Positions 3,063-48,390 of a DNA stretch of 64,000 nucleotides are shown here, one piece after another (positions within the stretch are counted from its first letter, which is position 1; each line of letters begins with the position of its first letter). Both the position numbers and the translations under genes were made by a program. Under the pieces are notes generated by a model. The model was not told the DNA's origin and did no database searches. It worked only from the letters and a program-made list of their open reading frames with translations. Source of the DNA: an uncultured Chloroflexia bacterium (GTDB lineage: Bacteria > Chloroflexota > Anaerolineae > Anaerolineales > RBG-16-64-43); assembly GCA_963724345.1 (NCBI GenBank), contig CAVRUI010000001.1, positions 14,201 through 78,200 of the forward strand, in the 5' to 3' direction.

Positions 3063-6000
3063 ATGGGAATGGATTCCGACAGCGCTCCGCGCCCCGCCGA
3101 CATCTCCACTTGCGAATCCGTCCCGATCCTGCGGCCCCGTCCGGCGGGAAAGCGCCGCAGCCAGTTCCGAATCCTCGTCTTTTCGCTGATAACCGCCGCC
3201 GGTTTCGCCTCCCCGGCCGCTGCAACTTCTCCCGCCTGGGCGGCACCGCGGCTCACCCCGGGCGTGATCGATCCGCCGACCGTCAGCTTGAATGTTCCGG
3301 CAACGGCGATGATCGGTTCAAACGTTATCTTCACCGCATCCTTCGATAACAACGATCCGGAGAACGAAACCGGATACGGCCCATTCCTGGAATTGATCAT
3401 CCCGCGCACCGGGGCGGACGGCGCAGGCGCGGCGACGGACGACGGGCTGGGAACGACCACGATCTCCGCCACGATCTTTGGAAATCCCATCCCGGCGCGG
3501 GATTTCTACCGGGTGACCTTCAACGCGGGCGGAACGGCAACCCACCCGATCGCCCGCAATGCGGCCGGCACCCTCATCACCGTCAGCGGAACGCCCGGCG
3601 ACGAACTGGTGGTCATCCGCCTGCCGTTCGGCAGTTTCTCGCCGGACCAGCCGCCCGCAACGGTGGCGATGACGGTCAACATGAGCAACCTCGCCGATCT
3701 CGGTTACGGGCTCGCCATCCGGGCGCGCGGCGGGTACGAGTTCGGGTTTACGCCGCTGGATGATTGGTGCTGCGGCGACCCGGCCAGTGCGACGCTGAGC
3801 GGCTACACCTCCGGATCGGTCACCCCGACTCTGCTCACGCTCGCCAAAGCCTACGCCGGCCCGGCGGACGTCTCCGCCGAGACGGCGACCGGTCCGAATT
3901 ACCCGCGGCAATACTCGGTCACGGTGGACATCGCCCAGGGCCAAACGATCACCGATCTGCGCATCACCGACCAACTGCCCAATAACCTGGAATACGTCGG
4001 ATTGGATTCGGCCACTCCGGGATACATCCTGGAAGACCAGCCTTTGGCCGGCGGGGCCCGCAATCCGCCCGATAACGACCTGATCCTGCGCTGGGCGTCG
4101 GTCACCGGCGGCGCGGGAACCACCGACGCCGCGGCGGCGTTCTCCTTTATTGTGCCGCGCGACGACGCCGACGGCGCGCGGGTGATCGATCCCGCCGGCG
4201 GCGTCGCGGTATCCTCCTGCAACAACGCCCTGGCGTCCGGGTCGTGGACTCCGATCGATGCGCGCGATGCCGTCCAGGCCGTCTCCATCGATCCGCCCGG
4301 CTGCGAGCATACGCTCATCGACCGTTCGCTCGCCGTGCAGAAAAGCCACGCCAATATCACCGACGGCAGCAACTCGCCCGGCGACCGGATCGATTACACG
4401 CTGGAGATCCAGGTCTCGGATTTCTTCGCCTTCGACCAGGTCGTCCTCACCGATATCCTTTCGGACGGCCAGCACTTCGACGTCGACCCGGCTTTCCCGC
4501 CCACCCTGGAGGTGAACGGGAACGGATATGCTCTGGCGGCAGCCGCCTTCGCCCCCGCCAACTTCACGGTTGATACTTCGCGGATCGACCTGACCGACGG
4601 GCCGCCGCCTCCACTGGTGGAAAATCCGGCGACCGACGGCACCACCCTTTTGACTTTCCGCGTCTCCGACGAGATCATCACCCGCGGCCAGAACGGGCGG
4701 ATGGTCGGCGGCTGCGTGAATCCGGCCGGCGGCACCCCCAACCCCGATTGCTCCTACAACGACGGCGGAACCACCGCGGTCATCCATTTCTACGCCATCA
4801 TCCAGGAAAGCTTCACCGATAACTATCCTTCGGGAGATTGGAGCGTCGATCAGGGGGACGAATTTAACAACAACGCCATGATCGACGGGCGCCTGCTCGA
4901 TACCGATTTGTTCACCCCCGGGCCGAATGTCACCGACGACGCGGCGGAAACCTTTGCCATTGGAACCGGGTCGCTCACCAAGCGGATCTATGCCATCAAC
5001 GGCAGCACCTCCTTCTCCACGCCGGCCCGGATCCAGCCCGGCGATTCGGTCACCTACCGCATCACCTACGTGATGCCGACCAGCGACGAGGAAAACCTCG
5101 AGTTCGCCGATTACATGCCGAAACCCATTTTCTTCGTCGCGGATCCCGACGCCGACGACTCCCCGGCGCATGGCAACGGGCCAGCCTGGGGATTCGATCC
5201 GGTCGGGCAGAGCGGGCAGCCGGCCGTGATACCCGCCGCCGGGCGCGCCAACTTCGGTCCGTCGGACACTTTTTATGATTATTCGGGGATCGTCCCCGCC
5301 CTCAGCGCGAACGCCGCCAACAACCGGCTGGGCTTTTTCTACGGAGACTTCGACGATCCGCGCAGCCAATCCACTACGGTCGATATCCTCTTCACCGTCA
5401 CGGTCGCGACCGAGCCGTTCGCCGACAGCATGTACCTGACCAACCAGGCGCATGCGATCGAAGGCAGCACCAACGCCGGCGAGGTCGGAGCGGATTCCAT
5501 CGTCCAATTGATCCTGACCGAACCGGTTCTCTCCTCGACCAAGGGCGTGGTCTGGACGAGCAATCCCGACAACGTGTTCACCCCGGCCGGCCGCGGGCCG
5601 GCGGGCATTACTTTCCTGGCGCCGGGTTCGGCGCCGCGCTGGAGCGGGACGATCCGCTCCGGGCCGCCCGGCGGCCTGCGCGGCAACCCGATCAACAGCA
5701 ACGTGCGGGACGTGGACGCCGGCGATACGGTGACCTTCGCGATCACGATCGAAAATACCGGCACCAGTCTGAAGGGCGCCTTCGACCTTCAGATCCGCGA
5801 CCTCCTCCAGACTCAATATCAGATTCCCGGCACGGGATTGAACCTTCAGGTGTATTACGGCAACGGCACCGGGCCGATCGCATACACCGGTATCGCCGCG
5901 CCGGGGGATTGCACCGGCTCCTGGCCCGGCGATCCCTGCGGACCGGATGGCACGGCCGATACCGCCGACGACCTTTTCGGCTGGGGAATCGAGCTGATCG

Positions 6001-9000
6001 ATCCGGTCGGGTCGGGCGTGTGCCAGGCGCACGACCCGAACCTGGGGAACAACGTCATCCTCATCACCTACGATCTGGAGATCCGCACCGGCGTGGCGCC
6101 CGGCAACATCATCAACACCGAGACGCTGATCCGTTATGCCGGCGAGGAGGGCGGGCCGAACCACGTGCCGACTCCCTCGCCGGAGACCGACCAGGCCACC
6201 GCCACGATCAGCGGCGCGCCGGTCAAATATATTGTCGGCACCTCGGAACCGCACACCGGTTTTTCGGGCGTGGAGCAGGCGGCGATCGGCGAAATCATCC
6301 GCTACCGGATCGTCGCGCGCATCCCGGAAAGCACCAGCGTCAATTTCCAATTCCGCGATCTTCTGCCGAACGGGCTGATCTTCCTCGATGACGGCACGGC
6401 GCGCGTGGCTTTCGTTTCCAATGGGGGGATTGCCTCCCTGGGTCGTGATAGTGTTCCCGCCATACCGAATGGGTGCAACCTTGCCGGCACTGCGGCGAAT
6501 GCGACCACCCCGGCGGTTCTCCCTTGTGCGCTGGATGATTGGAACTCCGGGAGCAGCAACAGCACGACCGCCGATCCGGATGCCTATGGCGCGGGGACCG
6601 ATGTGTATTTCAAGCTCGGCGATCTTGCCAATTCCGACCTGGACGACGACGGCGAATTCGTCGTCGTGGAATTCAACGCGCTCGTGCACAACCTGAGCGG
6701 CGCTCAGCAGAACGACTCGGGGGAAAATCTCGACAACAGCGTGCGCGCCTATGCCGGCGTCCCGCCGGTTCAAATCGGCAACGATTTGCCCGCGCTGCGC
6801 GTCCGGGTGGTGGAGCCGTTCCTGACCCTCGACAAAACCCACTCCGCCCTGGGCATCACGGTGGATGCGGGCGATACGGTCACCTACTCGGCGACGATCA
6901 CCAACGACGGCAGCGCGCCGACCAACAGCACCGCCTCCGCCTTCGACGTGGACTTCACGGACACTCCCCCGGCGGCATATTTGACATTGAACCTGGCATC
7001 CGTCGGCGTGTCGGCGACAGGCGGAGCGACGGGTGTGGTGAATGCTTCATCCGGCAATACCGTTCACTATCACCGATCGGGTCCATGCCGGTCGGGAGCC
7101 AGGTGATCATCACGTATCAGGCCGCGGTTTCCATGAACGCCACCCCCGGCCAGACGATCGACAACGATGCCGAGGTGCTCTGGACATCGCTGCCCGGTCC
7201 GCGGGGGACGGGCGATCAGACCCCCGGCCTGCCCGGGACGGGAACCGGGGAGCGCGACGGCTCGAACGGCCCGGCGGGGAACCCCAACGATTACGACCGG
7301 ACGGATATCGCCACGCTTGATATCCGCGATCCCATGTTCAGTAAATCCGTGGAAAGCACCTCCGCCGTGCACACGGCTGGGAACAACCTGGCCATCGGGG
7401 AAGTGGCCACCTTCGGGTTGCTGGTTACCCTTCCGGAGGGAACCACACCCACTCTGCAAGTCTTGGACGATCTGCCGGCCGGGCTCGCGTATGTCGATGG
7501 TTCGATGCAAATTATCACCCAAACCAATCCGCCGGCGACCTGCGGAAGCCTGAGCGCTGATTTCAACGGGACGCTTCCGGTCCCGGTTCTGACGATTACA
7601 CCCCCCGGCGGCGGCAGCGGCGCCAACCTGACCTTCGATTTCGGCGCCGTCACCGTCGCGGGCGATAATGTCGCCGGCAACAATTCCTTCCTGATCTGTT
7701 TCCAGGCGGTTCTCCTGAATGAATCCGGCAGCCAGGCCTCGCCGCCGCCGCTGACCAATACCGGAACCCTCTTCATCGGCCTGGATACCTTCACCGACAG
7801 CGAGGACCTCGCCGTCGTAGAGCCGACTCTGCGGATCGCCAAATCGGTCGATGACCCGAACCCCGCGCCCGGACAGGTCGTCACCTTCACCGTCGTGGTG
7901 GACCATGCCCCCGCCAGCGGCGCCACCGCCTTCGACGTCGAAATCTCCGACATGCTGCCCGCGGATCTGGCGCTGGACCTTGGGTCGGTTTCCTATGCCG
8001 CCTCCGGCGGATTAACGGGCATATACAACGGCTCGATCGGAAACCTGATGTTCTTCTCGGTGACGGAATTTCCCGCCGGGGGAAGCCTCACCATCACATA
8101 CCAGGCGATAGTGACCGCGCCCTTCGGCACGACGGTCAACAATACCGCCAACACCACCTGGAGCTCGCTGCCCGGCCTGAACGCCAACGAACGGACCGGC
8201 GCCGACGGGCCGGGCGGGGCGCTCAACGATTACGCCGCCTCCAGCAGTGCCCCGCTGAACACGGACCGCGACCTGGTTAAATCGCTGATCGCCGACAGCC
8301 ACCCGGCCCCGGTCACCGCGCTTCCGGATGTGTCGATCGGGGAAATTCTGACCTACCAACTGGTCCTCACCATCCCGCCGTCGTCCACCGACACGTATGC
8401 CGTCATCGACACGCTGGATTCGGGACTCGCGTTTGTGGATTGCGAAGACATCACCGGCGGCGCCGACCTGACCAGCTCGGCCATCAGCCTGAATACCGCC
8501 GGCAACTGCACCCCCGGCGGCGGACCCGGCGGCAATCCGCTCATCACCGGCTCGGGCGGGACGGTGGCATTCGATTTCGGCACGATCACGAACGCCCACG
8601 CGACCAATCCCGAGAGCATCACCATCCGCTACCGCGTCGTCGTCCTCGACACAACGGCCAACATCCGCGAGGTCACCCTGGCCAACGATGCGTTGATGCA
8701 ATGGTCGAGCGGAAGCATCCGCCGGCAGACGGCTCCGGTGCGGATCATCGAATCCGATTTGGGGCTGGAAAAAACCGTCGACCGGCCCTCGGCGGTCCCG
8801 TGGATGGTGGTGACCTACCGGATCCGGATCTTCCATACCACGGCCAGCCAGCTGGCGGCCTATGACGCCGTCATCAACGACATTCTGCCGGACGACCTGA
8901 CGTACGTGCCGGGATCGCTGAGCTTTGTACCCGGAAGCGGCGTAGCGCCCACTTTGTTGGACGATACCGCCATCGATCCAGGCACCGGTAATCTTGTCAT

Positions 9001-13827: not shown

Positions 13828-14517
13828 TCACCAGATTCCCGGCACAAGCCGCGCGGTATTCCGGCCGTAGGCTTCCCATTCCGCGCCGAACTCGTTTTTC
13901 AACAGCGCTTCCTCGTCGTGAATGCGCAGGAGCAGTATGGCGAGGATGACCGGCGCGGCGGCCAGGCCGATCCAGGACCGGAAGGCCAGGGAGAAACCGG
14001 CGGTGAGAAGAATAATTCCCAGATAGCGGGGATGGCGGATCCAACGGAACGGTCCGGACGTGATCAGGTGATGATCTTTTTGGATGGTCACTTCGGGGGA
14101 GTATTGTTTGCCGAGCGCCAGCCCCGACCAATAAATGAATCCATAGGCGGCGGCGCAGAGCACGGCGCCGATCCAGCGGAGGACGGCGCCTTCGGCGAGC
14201 GTCCCGATCCCGCGCCGGTCGAAAAAGGGGATCGCCAGCAGCGCGAGATACAGCCCGGTTACCAGCCCGATCCGGACGACGGTTTCCCGCCGGTTGAGTT
14301 TGGATTCATCGCCCTTGCCGCCGCGAATCCCTTCCGTCCCGGAAATCGCCTGGATGCCCACGGCCGCCGCGAACAATCCGACCGCTGCGGCATACCCCGT
14401 TCTGGGCGCGAGGGAGAAGAACCCGCCCAAATCCGCGAGCCCCCATCCGAGGAGCGGCAGTCCGAGATAGATCAGCACTGTGGCAACAAAGAATAAAAAA
14501 GCGCGGAGATATTTCAT
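13828..14517 (-). CDS. ICMT/PEMT family protein
   Basis: HHLITSGPFRWIRHPRYLG and EEALL...FGAEWEAY...RLVPGIW. Confidence 0.9.
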   Translation of the reverse strand: MKYLRAFLFFVATVLIYLGLPLLGWGLADLGGFFSLAPRTGYAAAVGLFAAAVGIQAISGTEGIRGGKGDESKLNRRETVVRIGLVTGLYLALLAIPFFDRRGIGTLAEGAVLRWIGAVLCAAAYGFIYWSGLALGKQYSPEVTIQKDHHLITSGPFRWIRHPRYLGIILLTAGFSLAFRSWIGLAAAPVILAILLLRIHDEEALLKNEFGAEWEAYGRNTARLVPGIW

Positions 14518-41364: not shown

Positions 41365-41437
41365 GTAGAGTGGGTTGACGCACCGCCGATCACTTTATAA
41401 ATGCTCGATTTATCAATGGCGCGTCAACCCACCCTAC
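41365..41437. repeat. GTAG-type REP doublet (inverted)
   Basis: gtagagtgggttgacgc ... gcgtcaacccaccctac. Confidence 0.75.
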
Positions 41438-41456: not shown

Positions 41457-41578
41457 GTCATCCCGGCGCGATCGGTTGGTTCGTCATCCCGGCGTGATCG
41501 GTTGGTTCGTCATCCCGGCGTGATCGGTTGGTTCGTCATCCCGGCGTGATCGGTTGGTTCGTCATCCCGGCGTGATCG
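41457..41578. repeat. 26-bp tandem repeat, about 4.7 copies
   Basis: gtcatcccggcgtgatcggttggttc at 41457, 41483, 41509, 41535 and 41561; no spacers. Confidence 0.92.
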
Positions 41579-41786
41579 CAGCCGGGATCCACGACATGCA
41601 CTCTATAAAAATATTATTCTGCTGGATGCCCCTTCGTTCACCCCCGCTCCGCAATCATCCCTGCTCATGGAAAAAGTTCGAGCAGGGATGCTCCCCCCTT
41701 CGCGAACCCATCGCACCGGGAAATCACCGGCGCTAATCGCTCCGGGGGGCAAGCGCGGGGCAGGCGCCGGGCATGACGATCCCATC

Positions 41787-44558
41787 TCATTCCATTATCG
41801 ATAAAAACACCGGCACGATCTGCGGGTCGAAATGCTTCCCGGATTGGGTCAGCAGGTAATCGCGCGCCTGGTCCTTGGTCCACGCCTGGCGGTACGGGCG
41901 GTCGGATGTGGTTGCGTCCCAAACGTCCACGATCGCGAAGACCCGCGCCGCGAGCGGAATTTGGTCGCCCTTCAAGCCGCGCGGATAGCCCGAGCCGTCC
42001 CACTTTTCATGGTGGCAATAGGGGATGTCGAGGGAATGCTTCAGGTAGATGATCGGCGAAAGCATCTCGTAGGCATAGAGCGGGTGGCGGCGCATGACGT
42101 CCCATTCCTCGCGCGAAAGGGCGTCGCGTTTGAGGAGGATGCTGTCGGGGATCCCCATTTTTCCCATGTCGTGCAGCAGCGCGCCGCGGCGGATGTGGAC
42201 CATCTGGCTTTCATCCATCCCCATCGCGCGCGCCAGGCTTTCGGTCATCTCGGTGACGCGCTCGGTATGCCCTTCCGTGCCCTCGTCCCGCAGGTCGAGC
42301 GCGCGCGACCAGCCTTCGATGGTGGTGTCGTAGGCCAGGTTCAGCTCGGCGTTGGAGTGCTGCAGCTCGTCGAACAGGGAAGCGTTGTCGATCGCGATCG
42401 CGGCCTGGACGGTGAGGGATTCCAGGAAATCGAACCAGTCGGCATCCGCCGTGAGCGCGGTCCGGAAGAACACCTCGAGCACTCCCTTCACCTGGCCCTT
42501 GACGATCAGGGGAGCCGCGCAATAGGACTTGAAGCGTTCGGACGGGAACTTCGGCGAGCGCGAAAGGCTGCCCACATCCTGGTCCAGGTTTGGGACGAAG
42601 ATCAGCCGGCGCTCGTGGGCCGCCTGGCCGGCGTATCCCTCCCCCAGCCGGAGGTGGGTGTGGTGCAGGGCATCCGAGTGGAACCCCTTCCCGGCCACGA
42701 ATTCCAACAACGTGGTCTTCGGGTTGAGAAGCAGGACGTCCACCGCATCCACGTTCGAACGGCGCGAGACCTGGTCCAGGAGGATTTCCAGCGTGAAGTG
42801 CAAATCCAGGCTGGAGCTGATGGTGATGTCGATATCCCGCAGGGTTTGCAGACGCTCCAAGCGGCTTTGCGTTTCCGCGTACAGGCGCAGGTTCTCCAGC
42901 ATCGGCGCGAGCTGGCTGCCGAGCGTGCGCAGGAGAAGAACGTCGTCGTGGGGGTAGAAATCGTCCGGATCGCGCCGTCCGAACAGCCACACCCCGCTGG
43001 TCTTCCCGCCGGTCTGGAGCGCGACGGCCAGCCGGACCCAGGACCAAAGGTCGGCGGCGACGCGGTCGGGCGGCCGGTACTGGCCGGCGCTCTGAATCAG
43101 CGTTTCCATTTCGCCGAGTTCCACCAGCCGGTCGGTCAGGGTGAGCCCATCCACGTAAAACAGAGAGTATCCGTTTTCCATCTTCCGATACAAAGCCAAC
43201 TCGCGGATCAAGAGGCTCGGGGTCACGTCGCGGCTCAGGAGCCGGATGAGCAGCGCGGGTTCGAAGGCCGCCGGCAGCTGGAGCGCGAAATCGCGGACGA
43301 TCTCCTGCGGATTGTGGCGGGCCCCGTAGGCCATCGTATCGAACCAGAGCTGGAAACGCCCGCGCAGGCCCGGGGCGGCGATCAGGAAGATCAGCGTCAC
43401 GGCCAGGCTGAACGCCAGCGATTCATCCGCCAGGTGGAGGTATTGGCTGGCGACGGAAAAGATAAGGATGATTGCCAGGCTGTAGAGCAGAATGAATGTA
43501 TACAAGCTCAACGCGCGGTTGGCGCGCAATTCGAACTCCCCCAGGCTGCGTTTGTAGATCGCGTAAAAGTAGAAAAACGGAAGCAGCGGAAGGGCCATGT
43601 AGGTGGCCAGCAGCGCCGGTGTGGACAGCGAAATTAATTTTGTGAAGAGGGGGACGGTTACATAGAACAGACTCGGCAGGAACGCCAATCCGATTCCGAG
43701 GAACATCAAACGCAGGGCAAGCCGTTCCGTCGCGGAAAGACGGGTAAGAAGGCGGTAGGCCAACAGCCCCAGGCTGCCAAGGATGGCGATCGCCAAGCCC
43801 AAATAAAATACCTGACGGGGCAGGACATGGAACAGCTCCAGCAGGGAAAGAACAACACCGGCAAAATAGAGAATCAACAGATACATCCGCTGCCGGGGCC
43901 GAAAGATCGGATTGGGGATCTCCAAATGCAGGTGGATGTACAGAGGAGCAATAAGCCAGGTCGCCACATGGATAATATAAGAGGAGAAATTGAGAATCGA
44001 TATGGATAAGCCGACGGCCAGGTATACCGCGGTGGCGTAGTTAAAAACAACCAGAAGAAACCAGCGCCGGTTCCGGGGACGGATGAGGATCAGCACGGCC
44101 GTCCCGGCCAGCCAAAATGGGATATAGAACAGCATTGGAATAAAGCTTTTTAACCGGTCGGAAAGGGCCGGGCTGACAAGCGTCCACTGGATTATCTGCG
44201 GGTTTCCGTTGCGGAGGATGGAGACCTCTATCGTGTCGCCGGGTTGAAGCCCGGAAAAGGGGACGCGGTCGTTATTATTAAGATAATCCTCATAGCGGAT
44301 ATCCCCAATGGCTGTTATTTGATCTCCCGCGTTGAGTTTATCCACATCCGCCGCGCACCACTCCGGCTGGTTGCTGCTGTTGCTCAAGCAATTTGCAAGA
44401 CCAAGAATTGTCCAATTGCTGTCGTATTCGATTCCGGAATAGGGCGCGATGTACGTTCCCGCGATCCCGTAAAAAAGACAGATCAGCAGGGTTACGAAGG
44501 AAATCAGGAACAAAGGCCAATCGGCGGCCTGCCGAAGGCCGGTCTTGATTTTTTCCAT
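41787..44558 (-). CDS. ComP-like membrane sensor (TM-PDZ-multi-TM-GAF-GAF) fused to an HD-GYP phosphodiesterase
   Basis: PDZ-like LNAGDQITAIG...LQPGDTIEVSILRNG; about 9 TMs; GAF motifs; HTERV, LLHDMGK, HHEKWDGSGYP, DVWDA..SDRPYR. Confidence 0.85.
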   Translation of the reverse strand: MEKIKTGLRQAADWPLFLISFVTLLICLFYGIAGTYIAPYSGIEYDSNWTILGLANCLSNSSNQPEWCAADVDKLNAGDQITAIGDIRYEDYLNNNDRVPFSGLQPGDTIEVSILRNGNPQIIQWTLVSPALSDRLKSFIPMLFYIPFWLAGTAVLILIRPRNRRWFLLVVFNYATAVYLAVGLSISILNFSSYIIHVATWLIAPLYIHLHLEIPNPIFRPRQRMYLLILYFAGVVLSLLELFHVLPRQVFYLGLAIAILGSLGLLAYRLLTRLSATERLALRLMFLGIGLAFLPSLFYVTVPLFTKLISLSTPALLATYMALPLLPFFYFYAIYKRSLGEFELRANRALSLYTFILLYSLAIILIFSVASQYLHLADESLAFSLAVTLIFLIAAPGLRGRFQLWFDTMAYGARHNPQEIVRDFALQLPAAFEPALLIRLLSRDVTPSLLIRELALYRKMENGYSLFYVDGLTLTDRLVELGEMETLIQSAGQYRPPDRVAADLWSWVRLAVALQTGGKTSGVWLFGRRDPDDFYPHDDVLLLRTLGSQLAPMLENLRLYAETQSRLERLQTLRDIDITISSSLDLHFTLEILLDQVSRRSNVDAVDVLLLNPKTTLLEFVAGKGFHSDALHHTHLRLGEGYAGQAAHERRLIFVPNLDQDVGSLSRSPKFPSERFKSYCAAPLIVKGQVKGVLEVFFRTALTADADWFDFLESLTVQAAIAIDNASLFDELQHSNAELNLAYDTTIEGWSRALDLRDEGTEGHTERVTEMTESLARAMGMDESQMVHIRRGALLHDMGKMGIPDSILLKRDALSREEWDVMRRHPLYAYEMLSPIIYLKHSLDIPYCHHEKWDGSGYPRGLKGDQIPLAARVFAIVDVWDATTSDRPYRQAWTKDQARDYLLTQSGKHFDPQIVPVFLSIME

Positions 44559-44559
44559 C

Positions 44560-45510
44560 TCAGTGTATATCGATCTCGGGCGGCACCGCGATCCCTAGTT
44601 TTTTCAAGAGGTGAATCAGCGGTACGATGTATTGGTCGATCACGGAGCGCAGTGAATCCGGATCAGCCAGCGGTGTTTCCTTAAGAATTTTCTTGGCCGC
44701 CAGGTAACTTTGGCTGAGATGGTACATGGCATAACTGACGGCTCCGGATTTGATCAGGATCTGCTGCGCGGACCGCAAGGCCTCCGGGTCGTCGACCTGG
44801 GAACGCAGTACTTTGAACCGCTCGCGGTCCGGGTGATCGGCCGTCAGGGCGTACAGGAACAGCAGGTTGTTTCGGCCCTGTTTCCAATCCGGATTGGCCG
44901 GGGTTTCCATGCCATCCTGAATGTCGTCGTGGATCTGAATTGCGTCGCCGGTAATGGACCCCAATTGGCGGAGCCGTTCGACGGTTTTTGGATTAGCCTT
45001 GCCGAGGATCGCCCCGATTTGCATCGCCGTTCCGAAGTACGACGAACTTTTGGCGTGAGTCACCTTCCAGTAATTCTCCTCGCCGGTCAGGTTGCGCGAA
45101 TCCAGATCCTGGCCGTATGCCATGGTGAGCGCCATCTGCGCCAGGCAATCCATCACCGCCGCCCGGCGCCCGGCATCCACGGGGGTGTTGGCGATGACGC
45201 GGAAGGCGATCGATTGAAACGCGAAGGAGAAATTGGCGGCCATAGCGTCGCCGATCTTGAGGTGCTCCCCGCGCGGATCCTGGTCGAGCATATCGTCCAC
45301 GAGGAGGATACTGAGAATCATGCATAAAATTGCGGCCGAACCGCCTGCCACCACCGATTCGTCGCCACCCACCGCCCGGCAGGCGCGCAACGGCCATTCC
45401 CAAACCTGGTGCGGGCGGGCCACCTGCCGTTCGAAAATGGCTAATATCGCCGGCCAATCGGCCACTTCCGGCAGGCTCATAACCTGTCTTTTTACATCTT
45501 CAATATCCAT
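44560..45510 (-). CDS. Class I isoprenoid-synthase-fold protein, ComQ-like putative Trp-peptide prenyltransferase
   Basis: LLVDDMLD, GQDLD, KSS, QIHDDIQD, DWKQGRNNL; lacks the GGKRxRP and DDxxD..RRG IPP-binding motifs; GAGGGAGG RBS. Confidence 0.72.
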   Translation of the reverse strand: MDIEDVKRQVMSLPEVADWPAILAIFERQVARPHQVWEWPLRACRAVGGDESVVAGGSAAILCMILSILLVDDMLDQDPRGEHLKIGDAMAANFSFAFQSIAFRVIANTPVDAGRRAAVMDCLAQMALTMAYGQDLDSRNLTGEENYWKVTHAKSSSYFGTAMQIGAILGKANPKTVERLRQLGSITGDAIQIHDDIQDGMETPANPDWKQGRNNLLFLYALTADHPDRERFKVLRSQVDDPEALRSAQQILIKSGAVSYAMYHLSQSYLAAKKILKETPLADPDSLRSVIDQYIVPLIHLLKKLGIAVPPEIDIH

Positions 45511-45588
45511 GGAATTCCCTCCCTCATAATTATGTGGAAATCCGGTAATTTAGCAACAGGTTGTTCTTTCTCCGGTTTGGAAAAACAT

Positions 45589-45616
45589 CGTAGCGCGGCG
45601 AGCCGTCCGCGCTACG
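45589..45616 (-). terminator. GTAG-type hairpin with U-tract between the peptide gene and the ComQ-like gene
   Basis: cgtagcgcgg-N8-ccgcgctacg followed on the minus strand by atgttttt. Confidence 0.55.
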
Positions 45617-45723
45617 AGAAATCCTACCCTGATACCCGGGAAATCAGGGCAAATAGTGCCACCCATTCCCTGCGATCGACCGGTTTTCCTCCGGATGCTT
45701 GAATGTGATCTGCGAGGCCGGCC

Positions 45724-45867
45724 TTAACCCCATTTACCCCAGCCTGACAGGCTGGTGGCTTTCAACAGATCCTCGGGCTCCTCGATCGCCGTGAGGTCGG
45801 ACAAAGCTGCTATCAATTCACTTTTCTCTTCGGAATGCAAAAGCACGTTGAACTTTTCTATGGACAT
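45724..45867 (-). CDS. 47-aa ComX-like precursor peptide (not in the supplied ORF track)
   Basis: GAGGAGGG RBS 5 nt before ATG; MSIEKFNVLLHSEEKSELIAALSDLTAIEEPEDLLKATSLSGWGKWG*; Trp at -2 and -5. Confidence 0.75.
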   Translation of the reverse strand: MSIEKFNVLLHSEEKSELIAALSDLTAIEEPEDLLKATSLSGWGKWG

Positions 45868-46124: not shown

Positions 46125-46878
46125 TCAGATCTGCCCGGAATAAACGGACGCCAATATGTCGCGCGACCGTTCCAGCGGGCGGTTATCGAGCGGAGTTACC
46201 CGGTAACCGAGCGATTCCAGAAACGCAAGGCATTCCATATGGACCTTGCCGGAGTGGGTGGAGAGGAAAATCGGCGGATGGCTCGCGGCCAGCATCCGGC
46301 GCGCGCCCTGCAGCGCCAGGAATTCCGCCCCTTCGATGTCGATTTTGAGCAGATCCGGCGCCGGCAGGCGCCCCGCATCGATCCAATCGTCGAGCGCGAT
46401 GGATTTCACCTCCAGCGAGCCGCTTTCGCCGATCCGCCCCTTGGATGTGCTGGAATCCTCTTCGAAGCGGACCGTACCGCTGCGGTCGGCGACCGCCGCG
46501 TCGACCACGGTCACGTTCCCGATCCGGTTGAGGGCGAGGTGCCGCCGGAGAAACCCCAGGTTGCGGGGCAGCGGCTCGAACACGAACACGCGGCCGCCGC
46601 GGCCCGGCCCGGACGGCGGAGATCAGGCTGTAGTAGCCGACGTTCCCGCCCAGGTCGAACACCACGCCGCCGGAAGGGACAGCTTCCGCGAACCGGACGC
46701 ATTTTTCCATTTCGTAGCTGCCCAGCCAGTATCCGTGGTTCCCGGATCCCGCGATCCATTTCTTCCCGCGCAGGGGGCCCTGCAGGATGGGCAGTACCGC
46801 CCGCCCGGGAATCAACCGCAGCGGGAGGCGCAGAATTTTTCCGAAAAACGAAGTGTTGGAAATTGAGGTCCAGTTCAT
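46125..46878 (-). CDS. FkbM family methyltransferase (one +1 frameshift near 46595)
   Basis: FDLGGNVGYYS in the upstream frame; FEP..N and LLKIDIEGAE in the downstream frame. Confidence 0.85.
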
Positions 46879-46979
46879 GTCCACTCAGATTGACGAAAAA
46901 TCTTTGGACAGGATTTGACAGGATTTTCAGGATAAAAAATGAAAAAATCATGTCGATCCTGCAAGATCCAGCCTATTCT

Positions 46980-47621: not shown

Positions 47622-48390
47622 TTACGCCGCATCGCGCCGGGGCGGCACGAGAAATTCCAGCAGGAGCGATACTATATCACGGCCCCCGGGCGGCAAAGGA
47701 TCGCGCGGGTATACCCGGCGGAAAGATTCGAGGCGCTGGATGACATCCCGCAGGGGCACCGGGCGCCCGGCATCGGCCGAAGCCCGGCGGACGAACAACG
47801 CTCCCTGTGACCGGTGGCACGCCATTGCGGCCAGTTTGCATTCGAACGCGGGAGTGATATCCACCACGAAATCCGCCGGATCGTTGAGGTTGGCTGAGCG
47901 CTTGCGCGGATGATCGGCATGATCCGCGCCGAATGAATAGAGCGCGGGAACGCCGGAGAGGCGCGCGGTTTCGAGGCAGGCCTGATGCGCCAGCAAGTGG
48001 CCGGGATGCCCGTATTCGCCGCTCGAGCCGTGGGTGATCACCGCGTCGCGGTTTCGCGGCGGCGAAGAAGGCTTCCATTTGCGGGACGACTTCCCCGGCC
48101 GATCCGGCGAAGGCGTACAGCGCGTCCTCGGGGCCCACGTCCGGATCCCGGAACCCGAGAAAATCGACCGTCGCGCATCCGAGCGCGCGCCCGGCGCACC
48201 GCAGTTCGTCGGACCGTATGGCTCCAAGCCCGGCGCGCGTGGCAAACCTCAGATCGCCCGCCTCGCCGCCCTCGCCGCGCGTGCAGCACAGGATCCCGAC
48301 CTCCGCCCCGCGCCGGGCAAGCAGCGCGAGTGTTCCGCCGGCAAAAACCGATTCATCGTCCGGATGTGCGGTGACGCAGAGGATTTTCAA
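47622..48390 (-). CDS. PIG-L/LmbE family deacetylase (one +1 frameshift near 48050)
   Basis: AHPDDE, TRGEGGE, GEYGHPGH, CHRSQ. Confidence 0.85.

Follow-up and report, generated by a model that had tools for sequence, protein, structure and literature searches.

A Trp-bearing peptide, a divergent synthase-fold enzyme and an HD-GYP receptor as a candidate ComQXPA-like signalling module in Chloroflexota

Peptide pheromones prenylated on tryptophan (Trp) are known from Bacillus and Paenibacillus (bioRxiv 10.64898/2026.08.29.745113; PMC10853753). ComQ, PalQ, and StheQ share the synthase fold, and each attaches a prenyl group to a Trp close to the C-terminus of a small peptide encoded next to it (bioRxiv 10.64898/2026.08.29.745113; PMC10853753; PMC13290415), and the P-domain of ChrPC also prenylates a Trp of an adjacent small peptide (PMC13290415, PMC10853753). 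ComP and PalP are kinases encoded beside the prenyltransferase gene (PMC10853753, PMC13290415, bioRxiv 10.64898/2026.08.29.745113). The ComQ/StheQ family is defined by a first DDxxD motif and a pseudo second Asp-rich motif (pseudo-SARM) of the form NDxxx (bioRxiv 10.64898/2026.08.29.745113). In PalPXQ of Paenibacillus alvei, the peptide PalX combines an NHLP leader with a Trp that is strictly C-terminal, and PalQ is terpene-synthase-like and remote from the trans-isoprenyl diphosphate synthases (trans-IPPS) (PMC10853753). In the StheQ/StheX pair of Sphaerobacter thermophilus, which belongs to the Chloroflexota, the modified residue is the Trp at the penultimate position; the available text of this source names no receptor and gives the biological role as unknown (bioRxiv 10.64898/2026.08.29.745113). 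The locus described here lies in a 64,000-nt stretch of DNA (the window; positions 14,201 to 78,200 of contig CAVRUI010000001.1) from an uncultured Chloroflexia bacterium (GCA_963724345.1; 3.1 Mb in 3 contigs, 78% complete). Its core consists of genes for a small Trp-bearing peptide, a synthase-fold enzyme, and a polytopic receptor ending in HD-GYP, a predicted phosphodiesterase of cyclic di-GMP (c-di-GMP). That these genes form a ComQXPA-like peptide-signal module, in which Trp is prenylated and the product is sensed, is the favoured explanation, with a probability of roughly 0.55. The literature search found no description of the family or, in agreement with the original prediction from the DNA letters, of a prenyl-peptide receptor with c-di-GMP output, although the supplementary network lists of PMC10853753 and PMC13290415 could include members.

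The locus resembles ComQXPA in that a small peptide with a Trp near its C-terminus is encoded beside a synthase-fold enzyme and a polytopic sensor. Moreover, the sensors of many relatives are kinases (8 of 40 with HisKA_3), and the small regulators tested are of the REC+GerE type. In contrast to ComQXPA, the enzyme keeps a full second DDxxD instead of NDxxx, and the peptide gene is upstream of the enzyme gene, giving the order X-Q-P in place of Q-X-P-A; in other clades of the family the sensor gene is divergent and the regulator gene convergent. The sensor has a PDZ-like loop and belongs to no named family, the hosts are Chloroflexota and Acidobacteriota, and the output in the window is HD-GYP, with neither kinase nor regulator. 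The ComQXP-type system originally predicted is retained as a unit of Trp-peptide, enzyme, and sensor, but not in its second Asp-rich motif or its gene order. PalPXQ is likewise a three-gene unit of a kinase, a leader-bearing precursor with a conserved Trp, and a prenyltransferase of the isoprenoid-synthase superfamily; it differs in its NHLP leader, which the window peptide does not match and to whose clan two distant modules, L096 and L097, have no more than sub-threshold matches. The window peptide, like StheX, has a Trp at position -2. StheQ, however, has DExxD plus a pseudo-SARM NDxxD, with stheX downstream, whereas the family described here forms its own lineage and has a defined sensor partner. 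In diffusible signal factor signalling from RpfC to RpfG in Xanthomonas, a fatty-acid signal passes between cells, and the read-out is hydrolysis of c-di-GMP by the HD-GYP domain of a separate response regulator. The hybrid kinase and receiver-EAL protein of the Acidobacteriota relatives follow the same two-step logic, but in the window sensor and HD-GYP domain are one protein, and a modified peptide is presumed to be the signal.

The three core genes are consecutive on the minus strand and intact, at the coordinates first predicted (Table 1), and the host was rightly taken as Chloroflexota, its nearest relatives being Anaerolineales metagenome-assembled genomes (MAGs). The peptide gene has AGGAGG 6 nt ahead of its ATG and is separated from the enzyme gene by 213 nt. 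Its product divides into a leader, helical and conserved (F6, L22), and the C-terminal core GWGKWG, which holds W43 and W46. The length of 47 aa was thus correctly called, but the Trp residues are at positions -2 and -5 and the terminal residue is the Gly of the core, not a Trp. No Pfam or NCBIfam model matches the window peptide, and the NHLP-clan models have no match at E<=1 to window-type peptides. Family counts refer to the best 80 of 158 confirmed related loci from a scan with one genome per species, and cover Anaerolineales, Ardenticatenaceae, Caldilineae, and other Chloroflexota as well as Thermoanaerobaculia/Holophagales (Acidobacteriota). By an iterated profile of the small open reading frame (ORF), 77 of the 80 loci have the peptide beside the enzyme gene on its strand, which answers the originally suggested synteny survey in the affirmative; the other three (L012, L015, L030) have at most 272 nt of sequence upstream of the enzyme before a contig edge. 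All 97 profile hits fall on the same strand in the enzyme-adjacent zone, which contains 910 of 10,338 small ORFs. This position and its recurrence rule out a chance ORF. In an alignment of 45 of the 98 peptides, picked for the absence of long spurious N-terminal extensions, W43 is invariant (45/45) and W46 is present in at least 90%. The W-x-x-W motif is present in 90 of 98 peptides and in 3.3% of background small ORFs; the peptide count is partly circular, since such peptides went into the profile, which does not apply to the enzyme-adjacent position. In a library of 5.8 billion called proteins the profile finds 167 at E<=0.001, and among the 120 matches listed every source-given name is 'hypothetical protein' and none has a Pfam domain.

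Acidobacteriota usually have two peptide copies, one on either side of the enzyme gene. L031 (5169-11938), for example, has receiver-EAL, peptide 1, enzyme, peptide 2, and hybrid kinase in order, and in such loci the two peptides are paralogous and both have a W-x-x-W-P core. In L020 (995-2952) and L022 (6929-8906), the enzyme gene occurs in two tandem copies between the peptide and sensor genes. In the window, the gap between the peptide and enzyme genes holds a terminator-like hairpin with a U-run; the fold of 45575-45630 has -25.8 kcal/mol and a z-score of -3.74, and 0 of 200 shuffles are as good. A pattern scan also finds a promoter-like site ahead of the enzyme gene, and together these would fit a highly expressed precursor with partial read-through. 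As a family trait the terminator was rejected: 17 of the 80 intergenic regions have one, and the antisense strand gives 7 of 80.

The enzyme and receptor genes meet at cacTGAgATGgaa, which contains the predicted TGA-G-ATG junction with the receptor ATG 1 nt past the enzyme stop. The conserved part of the receptor next to the enzyme is its first ~570 residues. This N-terminal sensor module adjoins the enzyme in 70 of 80 loci, of which 52 have it downstream on the same strand, 16 divergent upstream, and 2 in another arrangement; nine of the ten sensor-negative loci are contig-cut or fragmented, and only L081 is truly without a sensor. In a sample of 401 Chloroflexota genomes, which includes the window's genome and to which no formal statistic is applied as the genomes are related, the enzyme is present in 6, the window's genome included. 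Strong sensor matches (E<=1e-160) occur at neighbouring coordinates in the same 6 genomes, plus one other, G112. This co-occurrence indicates a module that is rare, patchy, and inherited as a unit, and on these grounds peptide, enzyme, and sensor almost certainly form a functional unit. Two weaker sensor matches in the same sample mark distant modules, L096 (554-4778, minus strand) and L097 (690-5084, minus strand), in which a sensor kinase gene directly follows a synthase-fold gene. The small ORFs upstream of their synthase-fold genes end in ...ATSWM and ...MGGWF, and their leaders have sub-threshold NHLP-clan matches (NF038399, 33 bits against a cut-off of 40, E 4e-8; the other E 9e-3). The partners of the sensor module, synthase-fold enzymes and Trp-ended peptides, thus come from more than one lineage.

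The pattern of variation within the trio is uneven. Compared with L007, L008, L009, L011, L012, and L013, the outer loop is the most variable receptor part, with identities of 70, 62, 61, 42, 37, and 33%, respectively; the same six relatives have 87-53% in the membrane bundle, 93-79% in GAF, 96-81% in HD-GYP, and 93-69% in the enzyme. The peptide leader is nearly constant among the four closest loci, and the core residues between and after the Trps vary (GWGKWG, GWGYWA, GWGYWM, GWGIWM, GWDYWR, GWAAWH). In the comQXP pherotypes, the sensing part of ComP and the peptide core vary while the output is conserved. The loop and core variation seen here resembles this pattern and does no more than hint at specificity between signal and receptor.

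The output of the sensor family was assigned for the 70 adjacent sensors by dedicated domain queries: 52 are histidine kinases, 10 have HD-GYP, 5 are cut by contig ends, and 3 are split. Pfam, run on 40 apparently full-length sensors, finds HATPase_c in 34, HisKA in 20, HisKA_3 in 8, a receiver in 6, and HD_5 in 5. In about 24 Chloroflexota loci a receiver protein of 180-270 aa adjoins the module, and 8 of 8 such small proteins tested have REC+GerE, the ComA/NarL architecture. Of 20 Acidobacteriota loci, 19 encode a hybrid kinase and, immediately before the peptide gene, a receiver-EAL protein; the 20th is contig-limited. A separate PAS/GAF-HD-GYP protein is found near the module in four kinase-type Chloroflexota loci. 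Among the window neighbours scanned there is no receiver or LuxR-type gene, and the predicted absence of an adjacent ComA-like gene is in line with this. Judged by domain content, the majority architecture of the family is a ComQXPA-like four-gene system, and output by c-di-GMP turnover is seen again, independently, with receiver-EAL. The same comparison, with 52 of 70 sensors being kinases, makes it well supported that in the window's lineage the kinase and regulator were replaced by GAF-HD-GYP fused to the same sensor, as was first proposed. On the enzyme tree the HD-GYP receptors occupy the window's clade (9 rows, support 100), a clade of L024, L027, L029, L030, and L034 (support 100), and L025 alone. 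These three positions imply at least three changes of state, and the unresolved Chloroflexota base leaves fewer origins possible.

A mechanism that would account for these features has four steps. The 47-aa peptide would be a ribosomal precursor whose leader docks on the synthase-fold enzyme. The enzyme, no longer condensing isopentenyl diphosphate (IPP), would then move a prenyl group from a prenyl diphosphate onto one or both Trps of W-x-x-W. After processing and export, the modified peptide would be sensed by the receptor with its 10 transmembrane helices (10-TM) through the PDZ-like loop and the membrane bundle. In the window's clade, the signal would pass through two GAF domains to the fused HD-GYP phosphodiesterase, so that the peptide level would set the c-di-GMP level directly, with neither a phosphorelay nor a transcription factor. 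We infer the Trp prenylation, the export, the role of the peptide as sensor ligand, and the sign of the response.

Several points weigh against such a ComQXPA-like module. The second Asp-rich motif of the enzyme is a full DDxxD that is invariant in the family, so that by the NDxxx definition the enzyme falls outside the ComQ family, and the details of its chemistry may be different. The characterised Trp prenyltransferases have a degenerate second motif, NDxxx in ComQ/StheQ and DDxxA in Ord1 (PMC12510300), unlike the present family, as far as the available text of the sources describes them. The modification could also be other than Trp prenylation. Family peptides often have residues beyond the last Trp, up to 31, and processing would be needed. 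No exporter, protease, or immunity gene is conserved among the recurrent neighbour clusters, in a survey that used a crude gene caller with antisense artefacts among its calls. L081, which is in the same MAG as L061, is a second peptide-enzyme pair with a receiver-domain ORF downstream and no adjacent sensor. Conversely, the sensor of G112 is an orphan (L095, G112:C19:44500-52500; 4210-6474, plus strand) with HisKA_3 and HATPase_c: this 99% complete genome has no enzyme or peptide within 4 kb of the sensor and no enzyme match at E<=1e-30, and an eavesdropping receptor is a possible explanation. In hhalign, the window-type leader resembles neither of the NHLP-like leaders found in the distant modules. 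Adjacency and co-occurrence are what would tie the peptide to the sensor. Moreover, exposed loops tend to evolve fast whatever they bind, a point that bears on the pherotype-like variation.

The alternative that survives best, although it is unlikely, is that the three genes serve the biosynthesis of a lipidated peptide natural product, perhaps membrane-active or antimicrobial, and that the membrane protein regulates or protects and senses, for example, the state of the envelope instead of serving as a dedicated quorum-signal receptor. The enzyme and the peptide are indeed the tightest pair, with strand and adjacency shared in 77 of 80 loci, and L081 has both without a sensor. In addition, the window's clade adds tailoring-type genes (Pyr4-like cyclase, FkbM, PIG-L), and prenylated peptides are treated largely as membrane-active compounds in the available text of PMC13290415. 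However, no transporter, protease, or immunity gene recurs among the neighbours, the sensor keeps to the locus as closely as the peptide does (70 of 80 loci) and is found in all 6 enzyme-positive genomes, and the recurrent extra partners are regulators, namely REC+GerE, receiver-EAL, and HD-GYP. In nisin-type systems the product itself is the signal, and the biosynthetic explanation therefore overlaps with the ComQXPA-like one.

The enzyme is proposed to be the Trp prenyltransferase of the peptide on the basis of its fold, motifs, and relatives. Its PF00348 (polyprenyl_synt) score of 71.7 bits against a cut-off of 27 bears out the isoprenoid-synthase fold of the original prediction. On the other hand, it is under every NCBIfam synthase cut-off (77 bits against 468 at best), and no NCBIfam hit to a ComQ-named model was obtained. 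The Asp-rich motifs are DDMLD (72-76) and DDIQD (195-199), and D72/D73/D76 and D195/D196/D199 are invariant in an alignment of 25 of 25 family members; the trans-IPPS fold and the first DDxxD are shared with the ComQ-family Trp prenyltransferases. Only the distant enzyme of L097 reads NDIRD at the second motif. Two canonical polyprenyl synthases (212 and 205 bits) are encoded elsewhere in the window's genome, and a third copy is not needed for housekeeping. An alignment with these two finds that the enzyme family retains both Asp-rich motifs, the KT-like Lys K154, and Q192 ahead of the second of them. In contrast, GKRxRP has become a variable stretch ending in WExP, IH before the first Asp-rich motif has been replaced by hydrophobic residues, RRG has become P-RG with a two-residue deletion, and GKP after the second Asp-rich motif has become TPA-PDW. 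In chain-elongating enzymes the basic residues of these motifs bind the IPP diphosphate, and losing them would argue against chain elongation. A housekeeping geranylgeranyl diphosphate (GGPP) synthase was set aside as a reading of this third copy.

The relatives of the enzyme are numerous and set apart. A maximum-likelihood tree of 83 rows (quick IQ-TREE search; 79 family enzymes, the two canonical synthases, and the two distant module enzymes) places the 79 family enzymes in one clade on a long stem, with a Shimodaira-Hasegawa-like approximate likelihood ratio (SH-aLRT) support of 97, separate from both other pairs. Of the phylogeny originally called for, this tree supplies the comparison with the canonical synthases of the window's genome, from which the family is separate. 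L036, from a record titled Promethearchaeota archaeon MAG, has a module that nests within the Chloroflexota clade of this tree, and its contig is probably a binning contaminant, not an archaeal gene. Against solved structures, the family profile matches nonaprenyl and GGPP synthases best (1e-17), followed by the all-alpha indole prenyltransferase Ord1 (9v4g) at 3e-13. Metagenomes contain hundreds of relatives of ~316 aa with 50-94% identity, named 'geranylgeranyl pyrophosphate synthase' (JGI) or 'polyprenyl synthetase family protein' by their sources, and the profile has 247 matches at E<=1e-30 among 1.84 billion cluster representatives. Fused prenyltransferase-cyclase forms were not found in the family, which is weak evidence; one candidate, P0243, was rejected as a frameshift read-through of the enzyme into the sensor.

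It is improbable that the enzyme genuinely synthesizes a prenyl diphosphate or terpene, with this lipid sensed or used by the membrane protein and the small protein acting as a regulator or chaperone. This explanation would agree with the retention of both DDxxD motifs, K154, and Q192 as in chain-elongating enzymes, with the best structural matches, with the JGI label, and with the Pyr4-like terpene cyclase nearby. In contrast, the GKRxRP, RRG, and GK motifs are lost, the scores are far under every curated cut-off, two canonical synthases are already in the genome, and the cyclase is confined to 6 of 80 loci. Moreover, the invariant Trp in a co-inherited peptide of 45-70 aa would be left unexplained.

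The receptor, according to a hydropathy sketch, has its N-terminus inside, a first TM helix at 16-34, an outer loop at 35-139, and ~9 further helices up to residue 394. The predicted order of TM, PDZ, multi-TM, GAF, and HD-GYP is well matched in its GAF and HD-GYP domains, but PDZ remains below threshold: PF13180 scores 17.3 bits (E 0.0057) in the window and 22.6 bits in L025, both under the cut-off of 27. The family profile of residues 35-134 has many weak PDZ matches to solved structures (DegS at E 0.011, DegP, and RseP-type proteases), and Atlas clusters of the sensor carry PDZ on 10-61% of their members. The membrane bundle has the invariants PFWxxG, H209-L-H211, Y330, E343, and R345 and matches neither Pfam nor a solved structure. 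The sensor N-terminal module as a whole has no named family and no ComP name in Pfam, NCBIfam, the unnamed Atlas clusters, or solved structures. The linker that follows has a cryptic GAF-like stretch at ~430-570, whose profile at 508-572 matches GAF proteins of the same genome and the GAF sensor 3o5y (E 5e-4). In the HD-GYP domain, the HD and HHEKWDGSGYPRG motifs are intact in the translation. Pfam finds neither HisKA nor HATPase_c in the window receptor, which is therefore not a polytopic kinase. The window's genome has 8 GGDEF matches, so c-di-GMP would be made in the host and is a plausible substrate for HD-GYP.

W-x-x-W is also the motif of eukaryotic Trp C-mannosylation, which is carried out by polytopic enzymes with polyprenyl-linked donors. 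As a glycosylation motif it was set aside here. It is very improbable that the 10-TM module is itself a catalyst or transporter, for PDZ-guided processing or export of the peptide or for transfer from a lipid-linked donor onto W-x-x-W, with signalling as a secondary coupling: it has invariant polar residues in or next to the membrane (H209, H211, E343, R345, R452), PDZ matches to the DegS/DegP and RseP-type proteases, no known family, no separate conserved exporter or protease beside it, and a peptide motif like that of C-mannosylation, but it is always fused to signalling outputs (histidine kinase or HD-GYP), the usual mark of a sensor, it matches no protease or glycosyltransferase family, and its conserved charged loop 335-351 is predicted to be cytoplasmic.

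The ComQXPA-like reading can be widened, more tentatively, to an undescribed, phylum-spanning family of prenyl-peptide signalling in Chloroflexota and Acidobacteriota. It would have its own W-x-x-W peptides, its own prenyltransferase lineage, and a PDZ-bearing 10-TM receptor, and its output would have been rewired between NarL-type transcription and c-di-GMP hydrolysis, by receiver-EAL in Acidobacteriota and by receptor-fused HD-GYP in one to three Chloroflexota lineages. As part of this possible but doubtful extension, the signal of the window's clade may further be made into a cyclised, methylated terpenoid-peptide hybrid by the Pyr4-like cyclase and FkbM. The Pyr4-like cyclase gene, of a type rare in bacteria, is single-copy in the window's genome and has matches in 0 of 14 control genomes. 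It is upstream of the module on the same strand, with FkbM and PIG-L, in L007-L010, L013, and L014, and is present in none of the other 74 loci; L011 has FkbM and PIG-L only, and L012 has no upstream sequence. The bacterial Pyr4-like cyclases XiaH, TylF, GroF, and the zig enzyme cyclise prenyl chains on aromatic scaffolds (PMC13307353, PMC12510300), and XiaH works downstream of XiaM, an Ord1 homologue (PMC13307353, PMC12510300). ChrPC and NctPC are prenyltransferase-cyclase fusions with MstE-like cyclase domains that act on a peptide Trp (PMC13290415). The xiamycin/oridamycin systems (XiaM/Ord1 with XiaH), as far as the available sources describe them, thus also combine an indole-acting synthase-fold enzyme with a terpene cyclase, as the window's clade does with a Pyr4-like cyclase 1.5 kb upstream; they differ in their acceptor, which is free indole or tryptophan-derived. 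Adjacency makes a cyclised terpenoid-peptide signal conceivable in this clade.

Table 1. Coordinates, strand, and supporting evidence of the features of the locus, as positions in the window.
Feature	Position	Strand	Evidence
Precursor-like peptide, 47 aa, MSIEKF...SLSGWGKWG	45724..45867	-	ORF, Shine-Dalgarno, family alignment
Terminator-like hairpin then U-run, between peptide and enzyme genes	45588..45617	-	Pattern scan, fold
Divergent trans-IPPS-fold enzyme, 316 aa	44560..45510	-	PF00348, family alignment, tree
Receptor, 923 aa	41787..44558	-	ORF, Pfam, topology sketch
Extracytoplasmic loop, residues 35-139 (105 residues, acidic, 2 Cys, PDZ-like)	44142..44456	-	Topology sketch, weak PDZ matches
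Membrane bundle, residues 140-394, ~9 helices	43377..44141	-	Family alignment, topology sketch
Cytoplasmic linker with cryptic GAF-like end (WVRL...GRRDPDD...ENxRL)	42834..43376	-	Family alignment, profile matches
GAF domain, residues 585-724	42387..42806	-	PF13185 (GAF_2), 54.3 bits
HD-GYP domain, residues 752-914	41817..42305	-	PF13487 (HD_5), 137.9 bits against cut-off 27.2
Pyr4-like transmembrane terpene cyclase, 208 aa	46980..47606	-	PF25129, 98 bits
FkbM-family methyltransferase, frameshifted near 46598	46125..46884	-	Pfam, NCBIfam, alignment with L007, L008, L009
PIG-L/LmbE-family deacetylase, split near 48048	47622..48390	-	PF02585, tblastn

Two of the upstream genes in the window are interrupted. 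The FkbM gene has a 1-nt insertion, an extra G in a GC run, compared with L007, L008, and L009, which gives two overlapping ORFs. In the PIG-L gene, tblastn with the L008 homologue places residues 1-114 in frame -3 and residues 115-250 in frame -1. Either assembly errors or decay may account for these frameshifts. Just downstream of the receptor gene, at 41457-41586, is a tandem array of ~5-6 copies of a 26-nt unit, GTCATCCCGGCG[CT]GATCGGTTGGTTC, with a 20-nt inverted repeat beside it at 41365-41437. A similar translated motif, HPGVI.AGIHD, occurs after a gene in L003 of the same genome, and the array unit may therefore be a dispersed repeat.

The family appears to be widespread in poorly known phyla and undescribed. 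If the ComQXPA-like reading is true, largely uncultured soil and sediment phyla would use the same chemistry as the known Trp-prenylated pheromones, with a defined receptor, and peptide quorum sensing outside Firmicutes would become directly testable. The public names would be misleading, both 'GGPP synthase' and 'polyprenyl synthetase family protein' for the enzyme and 'hypothetical protein' for the peptide. The enzyme family, together with its short and recognisable substrate motif, may be of interest for biocatalysis of peptide lipidation. The relatives would provide a natural series of one sensor with kinase, EAL-relay, and HD-GYP outputs, which would help in studying how outputs are exchanged. 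In the window's lineage, a single protein would form the path from an extracellular peptide to c-di-GMP, and thus to the switch between attached and free-living states.

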